The notes: generated by a model from the sequence alone, not told the origin. Shown: positions 6,914 through 21,539, counted from the stretch's first letter. The stretch: 64,000 nucleotides of DNA from Escherichia coli (GCF_013315695.1 NZ_CP054353.1), one strand, 5' to 3'. Translations and numbers: made by a program.

Positions 6914-7645
6914 GTGGCTTATTACAGCATTGGTGATGTTGCTGAACGTTGCGGGATTAATCCTGTCACTCTCCGGGCCTGGCAACGCCGCTACGGTTTG
7001 TTAAAACCACAGCGCAGTGAAGGCGGACACCGACTCTTTGATGAAGAAGACATACAACGCATCGAAGAGATCAAGCGTTGGATAAGTAATGGCGTCCCTG
7101 TAGGCAAAGTTAAAGCATTACTGGAAACCACCAGCCAGGATACGGAAGATGACTGGAGCCGCCTGCAAGAAGAGATGATGTCAATTCTTCGTATGGCTAA
7201 TCCTGCCAAACTACGCGCGAGAATTATTTCACTGGGTCGAGAGTACCCAGTAGATCAATTGATTAATCATGTTTACCTTCCTGTTCGCCAGCGTCTCGTG
7301 CTTGATCACAACACCTCCCGCATTATGAGCAGTATGTTTGACGGCGCATTAATTGAATACGCAGCAGCCTCGCTTTTCGAAATGCGCCGTAAGCCCGGTA
7401 AAGAAGCCATTCTGATGGCGTGGAATGTTGAAGAGAGAGCACGATTGTGGCTGGAAGCATGGCGTTTATCATTGTCAGGATGGCACATTTCTGTTCTTGC
7501 TGATCCCATTGAATCGCCGCGCCCGGAACTGTTCCCGACGCAAACATTGATTGTCTGGACAGGCATGGCACCAACGAGAAGGCAAAACGAACTTTTACAA
7601 CACTGGGGTGAGCAAGGTTATAAAGTCATCTTCCATGCCCCCTAA
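6914..7645 (+). CDS. bluR: MerR-family repressor BluR/YcgE
   Basis: 243-aa ORF with N-terminal MerR HTH ([30 protein letters not shown]). Confidence 0.85.
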
Positions 7646-7865
7646 TTTCACCTTTATCCCGCCCCTTAGACAGAATGTTATAATCTGAACCCACAACAGC
7701 GTTTGTACCGGAGCTGGTCCATTACAAAATGCTCACCGGGAGAATTCAGGTAATCCCCCTTTCACACTTTGTACATATCACAGCCAAAGGACAGACCAGA
7801 TTGAAGTGGTAAAACCGATCGTGCACACTACGCAGTCTCACAACTAACAAGAGGTTATTATCCTG

Positions 7866-8270
7866 ATGGATCAGGTCGTTGTTTTTCAAAAGATGTTTGA
7901 GCAAGTGAGAAAAGAGCAAAACTTCTCCTGGTTTTATTCAGAATTAAAACATCACCGTATTGCACATTACATTTATTATCTAGCTACGGATAACATCAGA
8001 ATTATTACTCACGATGACACGGTTTTGTTATTAAGAGGAACCAGGAACCTGTTAAAAGTTAGTACGACCAAGAACCCTGCTAAAATAAAAGAGGCCGCAT
8101 TGCTTCATATTTGCGGAAAATCTACATTTCGGGAATACTGTTCAACACTGGCAGACGCGGGCGTTTTCCGGTGGGTTACTGATGTTAATCATAACAAACG
8201 CAGTTACTACGCCATTGATAATACGCTTTTATATATTGAAGATGTAGAAAACAATAAACCATTAATCTAG
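7866..8270 (+). CDS. ycgX: YcgX, DUF1398-like protein
   Basis: 134-aa ORF MDQVVVFQKMFEQVRKEQNF... matches recalled YcgX. Confidence 0.8.
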   Translation: MDQVVVFQKMFEQVRKEQNFSWFYSELKHHRIAHYIYYLATDNIRIITHDDTVLLLRGTRNLLKVSTTKNPAKIKEAALLHICGKSTFREYCSTLADAGVFRWVTDVNHNKRSYYAIDNTLLYIEDVENNKPLI

Positions 8271-8481
8271 CTAAAGTTGGATGCTTAAAAAATGCTTCAT
8301 AATTCAGTAAGGCATTAGCATAATGGAAATAAAAGTGCAGAGACTATTCATATGGATGAGTAATACTATCTTTTTATTGCCACCCATAAATAATCACCAG
8401 ATCAATACTATCAACTTGATATTTGAAATGTGATCACTTGACTTTTGATACGTTATTTTATAGCGGTTAACATATTTATAA

Positions 8482-8974: not shown

Positions 8975-9298
8975 ATGAAGTGGATAGTAATTGACACGGT
9001 AATTCAACCTACATGCGGTATATCTTTTTCAGCCATATGGGGTGATATGAAAATGATCATCTGGTATCAATCCACTATATTTCTTCCTCCTGGCAGGATA
9101 TTTACACCGGTTAAGTCTGGTATTATCCTTAAGGATAAAGAATATCCTATTACTATTTATAACATCGCACCATTCAACAAGGATTTATGGAGTTTACTCA
9201 AAAGCAGTCAAGAGTGTCCTCCAGGAGAAAGCAAAATAACAAATAAATGTTTGCATAATAGTTGCATTATAAAAATATGCCCATATGGGCTCAAGTAA
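8975..9298 (+). CDS. iraM: Anti-adaptor protein IraM (RssB inhibitor, stabilises RpoS; PhoP-regulated)
   Basis: 107-aa [26 protein letters not shown]... matches recalled IraM/YcgW. Confidence 0.9.
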
Positions 9299-9342
9299 TG
9301 GGCTTCATATAAATATTCTCGACATGCTATTAATAATATCCA

Positions 9343-9395
9343 CATAAATAAAACAACGGGCGTGTTATACGCCCGTTTCAATATTTAACACATGT
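9343..9395. terminator. Hairpin, repeat copy B; probable bidirectional intrinsic terminator shared by iraM and icd
   Basis: GGGCGTGTTATACGCCCG stem-loop between the iraM stop (9298) and the icd stop (9401), flanked by T/A-rich runs. Confidence 0.6.
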
Positions 9396-9400
9396 AGAGA

Positions 9401-10651
9401 TTACATGTTCTTGATGATTGCATCACCAAACTCTGAACATTTCAGCAGTTTAGCGCCTTCCATCAGACGTTCGAAGTCATAGGTTACGGTCTTGGCATTG
9501 ATTGCGCCTTCCATACCTTTAACAATCAAGTCTGCGGCTTCAGTCCAGCCCATATGGCGTAACATCATCTCAGCGGAGAGAATAATAGAGCCTGGGTTTA
9601 CTTTGTCCTGACCGGCATATTTCGGCGCAGTACCGTGGGTGGCTTCAAACAGGGCGCATTCGTCACCGATGTTTGCGCCAGGGGCGATACCGATACCGCC
9701 AACCTGCGCTGCCAGGGCGTCAGAAATGTAGTCACCGTTCAGGTTCATACAGGCGATAACATCATATTCAGCCGGACGCAGCAGGATCTGTTGCAGGAAT
9801 GCATCAGCAATCACGTCTTTAATGACGATCTCTTTGCCGGTGTTCGGGTTTTTAACTTTCAGCCACGGGCCGCCGTCGATCAGTTCACCGCCAAACTCTT
9901 CACGCGCCAGCTGGTAGCCCCAGTCTTTAAACGCGCCTTCGGTGAACTTCATGATGTTGCCTTTGTGCACCAGGGTCACAGAGTCACGATCGTTAGCAAT
10001 TGCGTATTCGATCGCTGCACGAACCAGACGTTTGGTGCCTTCTTCAGAACACGGCTTAATACCGATACCGCAATGTTCCGGGAAGCGAATTTTCTTCACG
10101 CCCATCTCTTCACGCAGGAATTTAATCACTTTCTCAGCGTCGGCAGAGTCTGCTTTCCATTCGATACCCGCATAAATGTCTTCCGAGTTTTCACGGAAGA
10201 TAACCATATCGGTCAGTTCAGGGTGTTTAACCGGGCTTGGAGTGCCCTGATAGTAACGTACCGGACGCAGGCAGATGTAGAGATCCAGTTCCTGGCGCAG
10301 AGCAACGTTGAGAGAGCGAATACCGCCACCAACCGGAGTGGTCAGCGGGCCTTTGATGGCAACGCGATATTCACGAATCAGATCAAGGGTTTCAGCAGGT
10401 AGCCAGACATCCTGACCATAAACCTGTGTGGATTTTTCACCGGTGTAAATTTCCATCCAGGAGATTTTACGCTCGCCTTTATAGGCTTTCTCGACTGCAG
10501 CGTCGACCACTTTCAGCATGGCTGGGGTTACATCTACACCGATTCCATCACCTTCAATGTAAGGGATAATCGGATTTTCAGGAACGTTGAGTTTGCCGTT
10601 TTGCAGGGTGATCTTCTTGCCTTGTGCCGGAACAACTACTTTACTTTCCAT
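9401..10651 (-). CDS. icd: Isocitrate dehydrogenase (NADP)
   Basis: 416-aa [41 protein letters not shown]...; full length, not interrupted by prophage. Confidence 0.97.
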
Positions 10652-10822
10652 TCACCTCTCCTTCGAGCGCTACTGGTTTGCTCGTCTGCCACCACGTTGC
10701 ATATGCGTTTGCGTCCTGCGATACGGATGCGTTAGAGCAATTTTTTGTTAATGATTTGTAATTGGCTTGTCAATACTACCCTATTGTTTGCCGTCATGAA
10801 AGATGCGCGTTATTAGGCTATA
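10652..10822. promoter_or_regulatory. Divergent icd / original rluE promoter region
   Basis: 171-bp region between the icd start and the K-12-like rluE start codon at 10823. Confidence 0.5.
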
Positions 10823-10897
10823 ATGCGGCAATTCATAATCTCTGAAAATACCATGCAAAAAACTTCTTTTAGACCAAAGACAGTATTTTTCTGACCT
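10823..10897 (+). pseudogene. rluE: Remnant of the original rluE 5' end (17 K-12-like codons MRQFIISENTMQKTSFR, then out-of-context PKTVFF*)
   Basis: Read directly: ATGCGGCAATTCATAATCTCTGAAAATACCATGCAAAAAACTTCTTTTAGA; homology to recalled K-12 RluE N-terminus ends at 10873. Confidence 0.7.
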
Positions 10898-11112
10898 TCA
10901 AATAAGGTATTAAATATCAATAATTTATATCAGATTTTAAGCAATAAAAAAAACCACCAGAGATAACTAACAAGGTGCTATTTGGTCAAAATTTGACATT
11001 ACTCGATTCAGCGACTATCTCACTTTGAGCACTATTGGGAAAATTATCAAAAGTCATAGTTGAAGCGACAAGCAACGAGTAAATTATGGCATCCCCCCTT
11101 TTTGAGGTTCAC

Positions 11113-11199
11113 ATGAAACGCTTTGCACTGATAGCTGTGAAACTCGTTGCCTTTACTGGTTCTGCATCTGCTGCAACCGAAGAAATCAACTTCAAGTAA
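11113..11199 (+). CDS. Small ORF (28 aa) with signal-peptide-like N-terminus, inside the inserted segment
   Basis: MKRFALIAVKLVAFTGSASAATEEINFK*; GAGGT Shine-Dalgarno 5 nt upstream of the ATG. Confidence 0.35.
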   Translation: MKRFALIAVKLVAFTGSASAATEEINFK

Positions 11200-11232
11200 C
11201 AGAAACACTATATAACAATGGAGTGTTGACAA

Positions 11233-11682
11233 ATGGATACTACCGAAGAACGCAATGGAACATATTTCTACAGAGGACACCCGAACCTGTCCAAAATAGA
11301 ACTACTCAACGTCATATTCCTTGAAGAATTCTGTAAGGAATTGGGGATTGATTCGGTATCAGGTGCAGCAATCTTATCTGGTCAACCGTGGCTGGGTACA
11401 AGAGCGAAGCCGCAAGGGGCAACCCTGGGAACAAGTGTTGTCTCAAAGTATGCGCGTATACTGATGAGAGATGCACGCATGCCTTTTGGTATTTCTGTTC
11501 ATACACCAGTGGGTGTAAGGATGCAGAAATCTAATAAGCTTGCTGCAATTATCGCTCGTTGGGTCCCGTGGATTGGTTGGGCTTCACTGTCGATGAGTCT
11601 TTACAGGGTTTCGACTCGTACCCAGGAAAAATACAATCTGATTGCCAAACCTCAAGACCGTATTAAGTGGACTTCCTTCTAA
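11233..11682 (+). CDS. Hypothetical basic protein (149 aa), first gene of an inserted two-gene cassette; candidate toxin or effector
   Basis: Track ORF; GGAGTG upstream; net charge about +9 by residue count; no signal peptide or TM segment; not recognised. Confidence 0.6.
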   Translation: MDTTEERNGTYFYRGHPNLSKIELLNVIFLEEFCKELGIDSVSGAAILSGQPWLGTRAKPQGATLGTSVVSKYARILMRDARMPFGISVHTPVGVRMQKSNKLAAIIARWVPWIGWASLSMSLYRVSTRTQEKYNLIAKPQDRIKWTSF

Positions 11683-12017
11683 TGGCGACAACAATCACAG
11701 ACGAAGTTTTAGCACTGTTCCGTGATGAGATTCCAGGTTATCAGGATGACCACGGGAAGGAAATTCCGTTAGAACTGGACTCTGATTTGTTCGACTATCC
11801 ACGAGATGATTTAGAGGACGCTATACGGAAATACAAAGAGAGGTTTGGGATTAACCTGGATAATCTGGACTGGTCTTTGTACCTTCCATGGGAGTCTGCA
11901 CCATTGCTTCAACGATGGTTCAAGCTCAAGCGGGAAGAGGTAGAAACAACACGTTTACCGTTAACTGTACGGATGTTTGCAGAATCAGCAGAAGCGGGAA
12001 AATGGCTGTATCAGTAG
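11682..12017 (+). CDS. Hypothetical acidic protein (111 aa), second gene of the cassette; candidate immunity protein or antitoxin
   Basis: ATG overlaps the upstream stop (TAATG at 11680-11684); net charge about -10 (24 D/E versus 14 K/R); an in-frame ATG at 11667 is an alternative start. Confidence 0.6.
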   Translation: MATTITDEVLALFRDEIPGYQDDHGKEIPLELDSDLFDYPRDDLEDAIRKYKERFGINLDNLDWSLYLPWESAPLLQRWFKLKREEVETTRLPLTVRMFAESAEAGKWLYQ

Positions 12018-12036
12018 AATAAAAAAGAAGGCTGCG

Positions 12037-12099
12037 ATGCCCCTCTTATTACTGCTGATGATGGTAGTGGTAAAGCATCATCCTAAACTTGAACAGTGA
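12037..12099 (+). CDS. Tiny hydrophobic ORF (20 aa, MPLLLLLMMVVVKHHPKLEQ), speculative
   Basis: ATG preceded by GAAGG at appropriate spacing; located 20 bp after the cassette stop. Confidence 0.2.
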   Translation: MPLLLLLMMVVVKHHPKLEQ

Positions 12100-12349
12100 A
12101 GTGCTGTCACCCATCAGTAATACAGAAACACTATTTTTCATACCAGTATTTATTCAATTCATCAATGTAAAATGTGTTCATTGGGCCATATTTATCACCA
12201 TGCAGCCACACAACCGCTGCTCACTAACCCAGGTATTGATGAAACCGCGCTGAAGAGCCTGAACCCTGAACCTCTAACGAGTACCTTAAAAGTCCAATGC
12301 AATCCGACACTGTGCTACCCTCTGCGTAAAGCTCTATTTGGAATTTACC

Positions 12350-12988
12350 ATGAAATACTTTAGCGATTCTAAATCTTCTTTTAGAAAAAAACAGGTTAGT
12401 CGACTAAACTCGCAACACTCCACTAAGCGTAAACCTGAAAACCAGCCCACGCGTGTGATCCTGTTCAATAAACCCTACGATGTTCTTCCGCAGTTCACCG
12501 ATGAAGCCGGACGCAAAACATTAAAAGAATTCATCCCGGTTCAGGGCGTTTATGCAGCAGGTCGTCTTGACCGCGATAGCGAAGGGTTACTGGTGCTGAC
12601 CAATAACGGCGCGTTGCAGGCGCGTTTAACCCAGCCGGGTAAACGCACCGGAAAAATCTATTATGTGCAGGTGGAAGGTATTCCCACACAAGACGCACTT
12701 GAAGCCTTGCGCAATGGCGTAACCTTAAATGATGGCCCTACCCTGCCCGCAGGCGTAGAGCTGGTTGACGAACCCGCGTGGTTATGGCCGCGGAATCCAC
12801 CAATTCGTGAACGCAAAAGTATTCCCACCAGCTGGCTTAAGATCACCTTATATGAAGGACGTAATCGCCAGGTGCGCCGCATGACCGCCCATGTTGGTTT
12901 CCCCACGCTGCGACTGATTCGCTATGCGATGGGTGATTACTCTTTGGATAATCTTGCCAACGGCGAATGGCGAGAAGCGACAGATTAA
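12350..12988 (+). CDS. rluE: 23S rRNA pseudouridine2457 synthase RluE, mosaic allele with divergent N-terminus
   Basis: Track ORF 12338..12988 (TTG); ATG at 12350 gives [39 protein letters not shown]...; body matches recalled RluE from PENQPTRV onward. Confidence 0.85.
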
Positions 12989-12997
12989 GGACGCAAA

Positions 12998-14619
<1,622 letters not shown>

Positions 14620-19045: not shown

Positions 19046-20167
19046 ATGGAATACCAACTCACTCTTAACTGGCCCGATTTTCTTGAACGTCACTGGCAGA
19101 AACGCCCGGTGGTGTTAAAACGCGGCTTTAATAATTTTATTGACCCGATCTCTCCAGACGAGTTGGCGGGTCTGGCGATGGAAAGCGAAGTCGACAGTCG
19201 ACTGGTCAGTCATCAGGATGGCAAATGGCAGGTCAGCCACGGTCCATTCGAAAGCTACGATCATCTCGGTGAAACTAACTGGTCATTGTTAGTGCAAGCA
19301 GTGAACCACTGGCATGAGCCGACCGCCGCGCTAATGCGACCGTTCCGTGAACTACCGGACTGGCGTATTGATGATCTGATGATCTCTTTTTCTGTACCGG
19401 GCGGCGGCGTCGGCCCGCATCTCGATCAGTACGACGTGTTTATCATTCAGGGTACCGGACGTCGTCGCTGGCGAGTGGGCGAAAAGCTGCAAATGAAACA
19501 GCACTGCCCGCACCCGGATCTGTTACAGGTCGATCCGTTCGAAGCCATCATCGATGAAGAGCTGGAGCCTGGCGATATTCTTTATATTCCGCCAGGATTC
19601 CCGCATGAAGGCTACGCGCTGGAAAATGCGATGAACTATTCCGTAGGTTTTCGCGCGCCAAATACGCGGGAACTGATTAGCGGATTTGCCGATTATGTGC
19701 TGCAACGTGAACTGGGCGGCAACTACTACAGCGATCCTGATGTTCCACCTCGCGCTCATCCTGCGGATGTTCTGCCGCAAGAGATGGATAAACTGCGTGA
19801 GATGATGCTCGAATTGATCAACCAGCCGGAACACTTTAAGCAATGGTTTGGGGAGTTTATATCCCAGTCACGTCATGAACTGGATATCGCGCCGCCAGAG
19901 CCGCCTTATCAGCCGGATGAAATCTACGATGCGCTGAAACAAGGTGATGTGCTGGTGCGCCTGGGTGGTCTACGCGTATTGCGCATTGGCGACGACGTGT
20001 ATGCCAATGGTGAGAAGATCGATTCCCCGCACCGTCCGGCACTGGATGCACTCGCCAGCAACATTGCGCTGACTGCGGAGAATTTTGGCGATGCGCTGGA
20101 AGATCCGTCATTCCTCGCGATGCTCGCGGCGCTGGTCAATAGCGGATACTGGTTCTTCGAAGGGTAA
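19046..20167 (+). CDS. roxA: Ribosomal protein uL16 arginine hydroxylase RoxA/YcfD (JmjC/cupin oxygenase)
   Basis: Track ORF 19037..20167; start set at MEYQLTLNWPDFLERHWQKRP (373 aa). Confidence 0.88.
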   Translation: MEYQLTLNWPDFLERHWQKRPVVLKRGFNNFIDPISPDELAGLAMESEVDSRLVSHQDGKWQVSHGPFESYDHLGETNWSLLVQAVNHWHEPTAALMRPFRELPDWRIDDLMISFSVPGGGVGPHLDQYDVFIIQGTGRRRWRVGEKLQMKQHCPHPDLLQVDPFEAIIDEELEPGDILYIPPGFPHEGYALENAMNYSVGFRAPNTRELISGFADYVLQRELGGNYYSDPDVPPRAHPADVLPQEMDKLREMMLELINQPEHFKQWFGEFISQSRHELDIAPPEPPYQPDEIYDALKQGDVLVRLGGLRVLRIGDDVYANGEKIDSPHRPALDALASNIALTAENFGDALEDPSFLAMLAALVNSGYWFFEG

Positions 20168-20178
20168 GTTTGGATTTA

Positions 20179-20250
20179 AGCCGGATGCGGCGCTGATTGC
20201 GCCTTATCGTGCCTACATGCACTGAACGCCTGTAGGCACGATAAGTATGT
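20179..20250. repeat. REP (repetitive extragenic palindromic) element cluster
   Basis: GCCGGATGCGGCG...GCGCCTTATC and CCTGTAGGCACGATAAG motifs between roxA and pepT. Confidence 0.7.
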
Positions 20251-20312
20251 GGACCAGTGTCAATATAAAGGTTTCATCCCGGTAATTGGCAGTCCACATA
20301 CGCATCGGGCAA

Positions 20313-21539
20313 TCACGACTTCCGTTGCGCCGTCAACTCGGCAATACGGACGATCACCTGCACCGCTTTTTCCATACCTTCCAGAGTCACAAACTCATGC
20401 TTACCATGATAGTTGTAACCGCCAGTGAACAGGTTCGGGCACGGTAATCCCATAAACGACAACTGCGCGCCGTCGGTACCGCCGCGGATCGGTTTCAGTT
20501 CCGGTTCAATATCGCAGTCACGCATCGCCTGCTGGGCGATATCGAGAATATGCGGATGCTCAACCACTTTCTCGCGCATATTGTAGTAACTGTCTTCAAT
20601 CACCAGTTCAATGTAGCAATCAGGATGTAACCCTTTGCCCACTTTTTTGGCGATCTCCATCATTTTACGTTTACGCGCTTCAAACTGTTTACGGTCGAAA
20701 TCACGGATGATGTAGTGCATATCGGCCCGTTCAACGGTGCCTTTCATGCTCGCCAGGTGATAGAAACCTTCATAGCCTTCTGTCATTTCCGGGCTTTCAT
20801 CCGCCGGAACTTCCGCATGAATACGTGCCGCCAGCGACAGCGCATTTACCATCACGCCTTTCGCCGTGCCCGGGTGAACATTGTTACCGACAATTTTGAT
20901 ATTGACCGACGCGGCGTTGAAGTTTTCAAACTCCAGTTCGCCTACGCCACCACCATCAACGGTGTAAGCCCAGCGGGCATCGAAGGCGTCAACATCAAAA
21001 TGCTTCGCCCCTTTGCCCACTTCTTCATCCGGGGTAAAGGCGACGCGAATATCACCATGCGGAATGTTTTTTTGTTGCAATACCGCCAGCGCGGTCATGA
21101 TTTCTGCAATACCTGCTTTGTCATCGGCACCTAACAAGGTTTTACCATCGGTGGTAATCAGCGTCTGACCCAGTAGCTGATGCAGCACCGGGAACATAAC
21201 CGGTGATAAAACTTCATCGCCGATACCCAGCGCAATATCGCCACCGCGATAGTTTTCAACAATTTGCGGATTCACATTTTTGCCGCTGCAATCCGGTGAG
21301 GTATCCACATGAGAAATAAAGCCAATCGCCGGGATATCGCCAGGGACGTTAGCCGGTAACGTCGCCATCAAAGTGCCCTTCTCACTTAAGGTCACATTGA
21401 TAAGCCCCATCTCTTCGAGCTGCTCTTTCAGCAGATGCAATAACTTCCATTGGCCTTCCGTGCTGGGAACCTGTCTCACCCCTGCCTTTGATTGGGTATC
21501 CAGAGACACGTAGTTCAAAAATCGCTCAAGTAGTTTATC
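20313..21539 (-). CDS. pepT: Peptidase T (tripeptide aminopeptidase)
   Basis: Track ORF 20313..21584; start set at [21 protein letters not shown] (408 aa). Confidence 0.93.

Follow-up and report, generated by a model that had tools for sequence, protein, structure and literature searches.

The variant 5' end of rluE in Escherichia coli is probably the attR junction of a decayed serine-recombinase island

We describe the 5' end of rluE, the gene of the 23S rRNA pseudouridine-2457 synthase, in a 64,000-nucleotide stretch of Escherichia coli DNA (GCF_013315695.1, NZ_CP054353.1), which as a whole is called the window below. Positions 12350-12450 are probably the attR junction of a decayed large serine recombinase (LSR) island, inserted in a site of about 50 bp over the ribosome-binding region and first codons of rluE, with a tail behind the junction that was imported from another host. 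The divergence of the 5' end would thus have two separate causes: an arm of the element and a piece of rluE from a foreign host. A first-pass annotation, made from the sequence alone, had described the gene as a mosaic with a foreign 5' end and a replaced promoter, and overlooked the nature of the insertion.

Compared with rluE of K-12 MG1655, per base and per codon, the gene falls into clearly separated blocks (Table 1). Over codons 1-26 (12350-12427) 29 of the 78 nucleotides are changed. Codons 1-8 are unrelated to K-12 (15/24 nucleotides and 7/8 amino acids changed), codons 9-12 are a shared core, SSFR, with one change in 12 nucleotides and one in 4 amino acids, and codons 13-26 form a divergent tail in which 13 of 42 nucleotides (31%) and 7 of 14 amino acids differ. 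Codons 27-212 are of E. coli type, with 11/558 nucleotides (2.0%) and 2/186 amino acids changed, and the boundary at 12427/12428 is sharp. In an ungapped alignment the similarity to K-12 ends abruptly after 10873, returns imperfectly from 12371, and is near-perfect from 12428 to the rluE stop. The mosaic is therefore real, and the first ~28 codons are indeed markedly divergent, as claimed; the codon-by-codon comparison stops the divergence after codon 26. The RefSeq annotation of a complete genome that is 100% identical (isolate AF3, from a blood culture in the UK) starts the 212-aa rluE at 12350 and has genes for an STM2901-family and a DUF1493 protein in the interval before it.

The original start of rluE does lie about 1.5 kb upstream, where the native 5' end remains as a 17-codon stub. 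In K-12 MG1655 the gap between icd and rluE is only 171 nt; in the window icd (minus strand) is followed by 1.7 kb and then by rluE-nudJ-mnmA-hflD-purB (plus strand), and this synteny of icd with rluE-nudJ-mnmA-hflD-purB is conserved. The native annotated ATG is at 10823, a second ATG is at 10853, and identity to K-12 extends through 10873 (codon 17). In 5,425 of the 5,426 complete E. coli genomes that we surveyed, this region is the normal rluE start. The divergent icd/rluE promoter region had been called truncated: the reading frame of rluE is truncated, but the promoter region is complete, with all 171 nt and a single nucleotide polymorphism relative to K-12.

It should be noted that the NCBIfam RluE model (206 positions) and many RefSeq orthologues begin at the second ATG, with MQKTSFR (10853), and that the K-12 annotation of rluE (217 aa) probably includes 10 codons too many at its start. 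Were translation to begin at the second ATG, the crossover described below would lie at codon 4/5 of the true gene, and attB would extend over its start codon and ribosome-binding site.

The variant is strictly linked to the insertion. With 12330-12470 as query, 376 of the surveyed genomes match at 95% identity or more, 374 of them over at least 80% of the query, and 5,051 match at 80-90% over 12371-12470 only; none is intermediate. The 1,512-bp insertion (10865-12376) is present in 374 genomes, and so is the variant 5' end of rluE. Carriers include IAI39 and strains labelled ST38 and 405, and the island copies within E. coli diverge by up to about 2%. In IAI39 (NC_011750.1) the island matches at two separate places, the best with 52% coverage, so that it is rearranged or interrupted there. 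Outside E. coli, Escherichia sp. E1V33 has the same icd-island-rluE arrangement at 96% identity. The one thing that speaks for ordinary allelic variation, or for an artefact of annotation or assembly, is that the first-pass annotation itself had raised normal variation as a caveat. The two discrete classes with nothing between them, the identical junctions in 374 independent complete genomes and the codon comparison leave it a practically negligible chance.

The lead to an island family came from the 120 best RluE clusters, among which a few Citrobacter proteins have replaced N-termini resembling that of the window (MSNARKYSSDSKTSFR, MRYYNDSKSSFR), followed by host-type sequence after SFR. In their contigs, as in the window, icd and an intact intergenic region are followed by a native rluE stub that ends AAAACTTCTTTTAGA, then by foreign DNA and a new rluE start. 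The junction AAAACTTCTTTTAGA, with the native stub beside icd, is found in the Citrobacter-like loci L015 and L019 (our labels, here and below), in Enterobacter cancerogenus L025 and in the E. coli assembly L028. The foreign DNA of L019 has genes for a secreted protein of 120 aa, for Hcp, DUF8209 and DUF1493; that of L015-L018 contains insertion sequence (IS) elements and a recombinase gene of which the first 66 codons are present.

The recombinase is intact in L022: a 555-aa LSR with Resolvase and Recombinase domains lies on the opposite strand and starts 39 nt upstream of the new rluE ATG. A search with this protein gave relatives of 48-94% identity, whose intact forms have 555-579 aa and Resolvase, Recombinase and Zn-ribbon domains. 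In all five LSR clusters examined the gene is divergent from rluE and 39-52 nt upstream of it. Besides L022, an LSR gene of the family adjoins rluE in E. cancerogenus (L025-L027), in an E. coli assembly and in metagenome contigs (L028-L030), and in the enterobacterial L031 and L033; intact LSRs are at this position in L022, L025, L028, L031 and L033. In L025 (6.6 kb) and L028 (7.6 kb) the element is complete: the two junctions are there, and the native stub lies next to icd.

Across three genera the junctions are identical, for element lengths of 1.5-7.6 kb, and the site is empty in K-12 and about 5,050 E. coli genomes. The attL junction of the window is also present in L003, L021, L015, L019, L025 and L028. 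LSRs of type B and type C occur in none of the 5,426 complete E. coli genomes, nor does any intact family member, and no relatives were found in IMG/VR. The closest phage LSRs found are YbcK-like proteins of lambdoid phages, only 26% identical.

Judged from its sequence, the insertion of 1,512 bp belongs to this family of LSR islands at the rluE start, as a member that has decayed and can no longer move. It has a recombinase stub on the minus strand, seen as two collinear tblastn segments against P0124, P0125 and P0126 (one of them QRGFINTWVSEQR), with a frameshift between them and stops after; a DNA alignment to the 5' end of the intact LSR gene of L022 and a three-frame translation support it as well. 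Weak similarity may extend to about 12135, and the ribosome-binding site of the recombinase is retained upstream of the GTG. Since only this frameshifted stub of ~35 codons is left where relatives have intact LSRs, the window copy is a relic and not an active element. At the left end, the short reading frame at 11113-11199 is the remnant of a secreted protein of 117-125 aa found at the left end of intact islands. Further, homology to L019 restarts exactly at the Hcp stop codon (window 11213), which indicates that the Hcp gene was deleted.

An exact 13-mer, ACAGAAACACTAT, occurs twice in the island (11199-11211 and 12122-12134), with a chance expectation of 0.08. Each copy is at or beside a stretch of gene loss: the truncated left-end reading frame and lost Hcp gene for the first, the far end of the LSR stub for the second. 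A third, weaker relative is found at 10877-10896.

The attachment sites can be read from the junctions. The 11-nt direct repeat CTTCTTTTAGA at the two ends is the core common to attB and attP, and in other element types it has 15-16 nt. We reconstructed attP by joining the element arms of both junctions and assessed its symmetry by permutation. The dyad symmetry is 15/30 in the window (p = 0.0095) and 18/30 in L015 and L025 (p <= 0.0003; lowest 0.0001), and for the reconstructed attB it is 8/30 in the window and 8-10/30 overall. The inner motif of attP is TCTAAA and the outer motif AAATACT, and the centre, CT/TC, gives a non-palindromic TT. A target-site duplication of the transposon type was considered for the 11-nt repeat and rejected: its length varies by element type (11, 15 or 16 nt), and it is the centre of a dyad-symmetric site beside a serine recombinase gene.

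Further, in the E. coli, Citrobacter-like and Enterobacter sites the motif AAATAC begins 24 nt from the centre on each P arm and 19 nt from it on the B arm, a relation that was observed post hoc and concerns one attB half-site only. In serine integrases the motif of the zinc-ribbon domain is 5 bp nearer to the centre in attB than in attP (PMC3783163). The 5-bp shift would match this rule, and is supportive rather than decisive.

The P arm is also translated. Codons 1-9 of rluE (12350-12376) are the P arm read in frame, where AAA TAC of the outer motif becomes Lys-Tyr. The new N-termini in the family are variants of M-K-Y-x-x-D-S-K, such as MKYDSNSK, MMKYYNDGR and MSNARKYYNDSK, with MQSK in the E. 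coli element. With a displaced native fragment at the far end of the insertion (10823-10873) and an in-frame substitute start at the near end (12350), the locus has the pattern of an element that restores the end of the gene that it enters. The foreign 5' end is in this sense borne out: start codon and ribosome-binding region both come from the insertion.

Integration by the LSR would split rluE at the TT within AAAACT/TCTTTTAGA. The part left at the icd end would hold the native promoter and, as the stub, the start codon with the codons next to it, and the P arm of the element would give rluE another ribosome-binding region, an ATG and in-frame initial codons (MKYFSDSKS). The island of the window's E. 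coli lineage has lost the Hcp gene and all of the recombinase but the stub, and has kept the STM2901-family/DUF1493 pair.

The divergent codons 13-26 need another origin. They lie on the host side of the crossover, and were therefore not brought by the serine recombinase. Behind the core, the E. coli element L028 as well as the elements of Enterobacter and of the Citrobacter-like contigs have sequence of the local host type; as host-type sequence follows right after the core in L028, L019 and L015, the foreign tail is peculiar to the window allele and not encoded by the element. The tail has no match in the 120 best RluE clusters, where the nearest is the E. coli type, and a protein search with the 45-aa variant N-terminus gave only three fragments, which were uninformative. 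Most likely, codons 13-26 come from the rluE of a previous host and were imported together with the island by homologous recombination.

For this, integration would have happened in another enterobacterium, and the island would later have passed from there into Escherichia along with a short piece of its rluE. The right crossover would be near 12428, and the left one inside the conserved start of rluE, which has ~32 nt of identity between the E. coli and the Citrobacter-like sequences. The order of events and the donor are what we infer here. Flank-mediated transfer as such is directly seen in L021. In this enterobacterial contig the identity to the window is 82-93% (about 88%) over icd and about 75% over the body of rluE, against 91-100%, mostly at least 97%, over the stretch corresponding to 10601-12450, which includes an E. 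coli-type intergenic region. L021 was also considered as the donor and rejected, because this profile is that of a recipient of an E. coli-type segment. Between its rluE and nudJ, L021 has a 312-aa open reading frame (ORF; 7473-8411) without a Pfam match.

Alternatively, codons 13-26 could have diverged in place after the insertion, by relaxed or adaptive evolution that fitted the tail to the new N-terminus. Seven of the nine changed codons are non-synonymous, the tail is basic, variable between genera and left out of a truncated crystal construct, and no donor turned up in the clusters or in JGI metagenomes, all of which would agree with such a process. However, 13 changes in 42 nt stand beside 2% elsewhere with a knife-edge boundary, and some of the changes are purely synonymous (TCT to TCC, ACC to ACT). 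The elements in L019, L015, L025 and L028 keep host-type tails, so no compensatory change is needed. The tail is also nearly identical in E. coli, Escherichia sp. E1V33 and L021, which argues against fast evolution since. We consider divergence in place unlikely.

The arrangement could also be ancestral in Escherichia, with the K-12-like genomes having lost the island by precise excision. The arrangement in E1V33 at 96% identity fits this, and the differences of up to about 2% between copies in E. coli imply that the insertion is old. However, precise excision by the LSR would not remove the variant tail, and 5,051 E. coli genomes have a tail of K-12 type instead. The K-12-type tail is moreover common to the closest RluE clusters and resembles the tails of Citrobacter and Enterobacter (NH[QR]V[KE]RFSS). 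An ancestral island is therefore very improbable, and import from a previous host is the explanation that we retain.

Next, we looked at the transcription of rluE. Promoters were searched by consensus and position weight matrix (PWM) scans, and the chance level was taken from shuffles. The best promoter-like site in 10652-12400 is ATGAAA-17-TATAAT on the plus strand of the native intergenic region (10796-10824, PWM 11.5); the K-12-annotated rluE ATG (10823) overlaps its -10 hexamer TATAAT (10819-10824). All island genes are co-oriented with this promoter over the 1.5 kb to rluE, and no convincing plus-strand intrinsic terminator was found between the promoter and rluE. The only terminator-like feature on that strand, a hairpin of -15.3 kcal/mol followed by TTTT (11445-11490), is inside the STM2901-family coding sequence. 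Because the native promoter is intact and co-oriented and no convincing terminator follows it, read-through is a live alternative, and it does not follow that rluE must be transcribed from the insertion. The supposed replacement of the native promoter holds for the start codon and ribosome-binding region, but the promoter region is neither truncated nor removed and still points at rluE. A dedicated promoter directly upstream of 12350 was not seen either: in 12018-12349 no sigma-70-like site is above chance, the best PWM score being 6.2 against a median shuffle maximum of 7.8.

Nevertheless, the native promoter may no longer serve rluE, so that only sequence supplied by the insertion drives it, either a dedicated outward promoter at the right end or a promoter inside the island. 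In the intact relatives the antisense LSR gene starts 39-52 nt from the new ATG, and an outward promoter in or near its 5' end seems necessary there. All decayed copies examined keep the 5' stub of this gene (~35 codons in the window, 66 in L015-L018 and ~20-25 in L019). The 103 nt that precede the new ATG are 88% identical in E. coli and L019, unusually conserved when the left end of the island is at 69% and the rluE body at 76%. Further, the 332-nt untranslated gap before rluE has more C than G (C/G 1.4-2.0), so that Rho could stop read-through, and type B elements have a strong GGAGGG ribosome-binding site before the new ATG. These observations have to be set against the lack of a sigma-70-like site above chance, against merely weak sites at the homologous positions in L022, L025 and L028, and against the intact native promoter with its open path to rluE. 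We regard transcription from the insertion only as a real possibility that falls somewhat short of an even chance. Read-through and a weak outward promoter in the last ~100 nt of the island appear about equally probable, and the two may act together. The same transcript or transcripts probably serve nudJ, which lies 9 nt downstream of rluE.

More tentatively, attP of this LSR family might have evolved to double as a translation-initiation cassette, with recognition motifs of the recombinase serving as codons, and integration might be a reciprocal exchange of promoters, where the host promoter drives the left-end cargo and an outward promoter within the LSR 5' coding region drives rluE-nudJ. 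We consider this possible, not probable. If true, insertion would be phenotypically silent, and it would explain why the recombinase stub is always kept in decayed copies.

Several points weigh against the reading of 12350-12450 as the attR junction of an LSR island with an imported tail. The B' arm has no AAATAC-like motif, the attP symmetry in L028 is weak (13/30, p = 0.09), and the att sites and the crossover dinucleotide are themselves deduced from sequence. No donor of codons 13-26 was found among the 120 best RluE clusters, and a degenerate pattern of the empty donor site had no match in JGI metagenomes. The left flank lacks a foreign tract, which means that the left crossover fell within the ~32 nt of identity between genera or that the flank was repaired later. 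Finally, no rluE promoter was identified in the window or in the intact relatives.

The mosaic gene still encodes a full-scoring RluE. It matches the NCBIfam equivalog NF008487 with 469.6 bits (cutoff 284), residues 8-212 corresponding to model positions 2-206, and its ORF is intact in 374 genomes. Aligned to PDB 2OLW/2OML, the catalytic core has two amino acid changes from K-12 in residues 27-212. The replaced segment is almost exactly the tail absent from the truncated construct 2OML, which starts at K-12 residue 29 (residue 24 of the variant). Counted from the sequences, the tail remains basic, with 9 Lys/Arg in the new and 8 in the K-12 tail. A passage in a recent review, citing Tillault et al. 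2018, lets the RluE N-terminus contribute to rRNA recognition and substrate contacts. A modest effect of the new tail on RluE function is thus possible. As the window copy is a dead relic, the biological impact is probably small, with effects probably limited to rluE-nudJ expression and the altered N-terminal tail.

Elements that restore the end of the gene they enter are well known: e14 and phage 21 in icd, the staphylococcal cassette chromosome (SCC) at rlmH, and LSR prophages in ORFs. SCC elements such as SCCmec integrate at the 3' end of rlmH/orfX in staphylococci by means of the Ccr large serine recombinases. As in the rluE island, the target of the LSR is one end of a conserved gene for 23S rRNA modification, the ORF is completed from the element so that the gene remains intact, and the islands have variable cargo and often decay in place. 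Unlike SCC, the rluE island enters the 5' end, and must therefore replace the ribosome-binding site, the start codon and possibly the promoter; it also has a single LSR, which was not compared with Ccr, and its hosts are Enterobacteriaceae.

The elements e14 and phage 21 enter the 3' end of icd, where e14 uses a tyrosine integrase and replaces about 165 nt from its own DNA. They resemble the rluE island in that the gene end is restored by a diverged, element-borne substitute, that the native fragment is found at the far end of the element, and that the mosaic allele is linked to the element. In contrast to e14, the rluE island has a serine recombinase, only ~27 nt are element-borne, and an extra divergent stretch of 41 nt (12387-12427) is on the host side of the crossover.

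A third group, A118/phi10403S in comK, SPbeta in spsM and skin in sigK, consists of LSR elements that disrupt an ORF, which is restored only on excision. Shared with the rluE island are the LSR gene beside attP, a dyad-symmetric attP of ~50 bp with an outer zinc-ribbon motif, and the non-palindromic central dinucleotide; the outer motif lying 5 bp nearer to the centre in attB may be a further resemblance. Unlike in these elements, the target of the rluE island would stay expressed, as an ORF with a new tip.

In the literature we found nothing on rluE with serine recombinases, or on rluE with icd and islands. The event seems to be of a known kind at a site that is apparently undescribed. What is distinctive among gene-end-restoring elements is that the 5' end is targeted, that the new start codon is inside attP, and that the window allele has a short tract from a foreign host.

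The cargo left in the window is the STM2901-family (DUF8209)/DUF1493 pair. In a bacterial scan with one genome per species the pair was found in 12 species, DUF1493 always being paired. Only Escherichia sp. E1V33 carries it between icd and rluE; elsewhere rluE is not nearby, and in these 11 species the pair is not linked to the contexts checked for Hcp either. The other 11 species were rejected as island donors, since homology is limited to the two coding sequences. In the Citrobacter-like L019 (8571-9867) the DUF8209/DUF1493 pair is directly after the Hcp gene, and DUF1493 relatives adjoin Hcp in other E. coli genomes. This suggests that the STM2901-family protein is a candidate orphan effector of the type VI secretion system (T6SS), with the DUF1493 protein as the candidate cognate immunity protein. 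Hcp-linked orphan T6SS effector/immunity modules are a known system. The resemblance is a small protein pair directly downstream of Hcp in L019; the difference is that no Hcp gene is left in the window. For STM2901 and DUF1493 the literature gave incidental mentions only, and no published function for either family was found. PADLOC had no match for the island proteins or for the cargo of the intact elements, the Pfam library used no significant match for the STM2901-family protein, and Rfam no match in 10500-13100.

Intact type B islands (L022 188-2257; L025 11927-13997) have a conserved pair of genes of 358 aa and 311/312 aa, with no Pfam or PADLOC match. By eye, the 358-aa protein has a FVEVKN motif like that of PD-(D/E)xK nucleases, and the two are possibly an uncharacterised defence pair.

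Table 1. Coordinates in the window of rluE, the proposed island and the neighbouring features.
Feature	Position	Strand	Details and basis
icd, divergent neighbour of rluE	9401-10651	-	416-aa ORF, annotated in 100%-identical genome
Native icd/rluE intergenic region, complete, 171 nt	10652-10822		170/171 identical to K-12
Displaced native rluE 5' stub	10823-10894	+	K-12-type codons 1-17 to 10873, then six element codons and stop (MRQFIISENTMQKTSFR followed by PKTVFF and stop)
attL (putative)	10841-10888		Host B arm, core CTTCTTTTAGA (10863-10873, inferred crossover TT 10864-10865), element P' arm with AGTATTT (10882-10888); junction reconstruction, symmetry
Decayed integrative island (proposed), 1,512 bp between inferred crossover dinucleotides	10865-12376	+	Absent from K-12; ends homologous to ends of intact LSR islands at same site
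Truncated left-end cargo gene, 28 codons	11113-11199	+	Signal peptide and ATEEINFK; translation, compared with 125-aa ORF of L025 and 117-aa ORF of L015
STM2901-family (DUF8209) protein, 149 aa	11233-11682	+	NCBIfam NF045926, E = 5.7e-46
DUF1493 protein, 111 aa	11682-12017	+	Pfam PF07377, E = 1.3e-29
LSR pseudogene stub	12214-12310	-	GTG start 12308-12310; residues ~1-36, frameshift and stops
attR (putative)	12353-12400		Element P arm with AAATACT (12353-12359) and TCTAAA, core CTTCTTTTAGA (12376-12386, inferred crossover TT 12376-12377), target-gene arm
Mosaic rluE, 212 aa	12350-12988	+	Codon table, NCBIfam RluE equivalog, PDB 2OLW/2OML
Mosaic rluE, element arm, translated (MKYFSDSKS)	12350-12376	+	
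Mosaic rluE, shared core	12377-12386	+	
Mosaic rluE, foreign-type tail	12387-12427	+	31% divergent
Mosaic rluE, E. coli-type body	12428-12988	+	2% divergent
nudJ, 9 nt downstream of rluE	12998-13459	+	ORF list, annotation

The surroundings of the site offer a few further observations. The 3' end of icd (window 9208-9400) is a second, independent gene-end-restoring integration site, of the e14/phage 21 type. It is empty in the window, where iraM comes after icd; in L028 it holds a tyrosine-integrase element (19144-20512), and in L021 a Phage_integrase gene (76-753) is ~3 kb past the icd 3' end. Target sites of two different integrases thus flank the divergent genes icd and rluE. Farther away, an IS2 copy breaks ymgF in the 100%-identical genome (window about 436-1990; L002 1785-3339).

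The variant rluE allele, which about 7% of the complete E. coli genomes have and which is currently annotated without comment, is explained in this way as the scar of a mobile element and not as point divergence, which matters for typing or recombination analysis based on icd/rluE. The STM2901-family/DUF1493 pair is flagged as a candidate T6SS effector/immunity module. The locus would also show clearly how one island can spread from species to species in two ways, through site-specific integration and through homologous recombination in its flanks. Its value is mainly in this clear two-route history and in a defined natural attB in E. coli with cognate intact recombinases: a conserved site of ~50 bp in the chromosome and the intact LSRs P0124 and P0126 are candidate integration tools.

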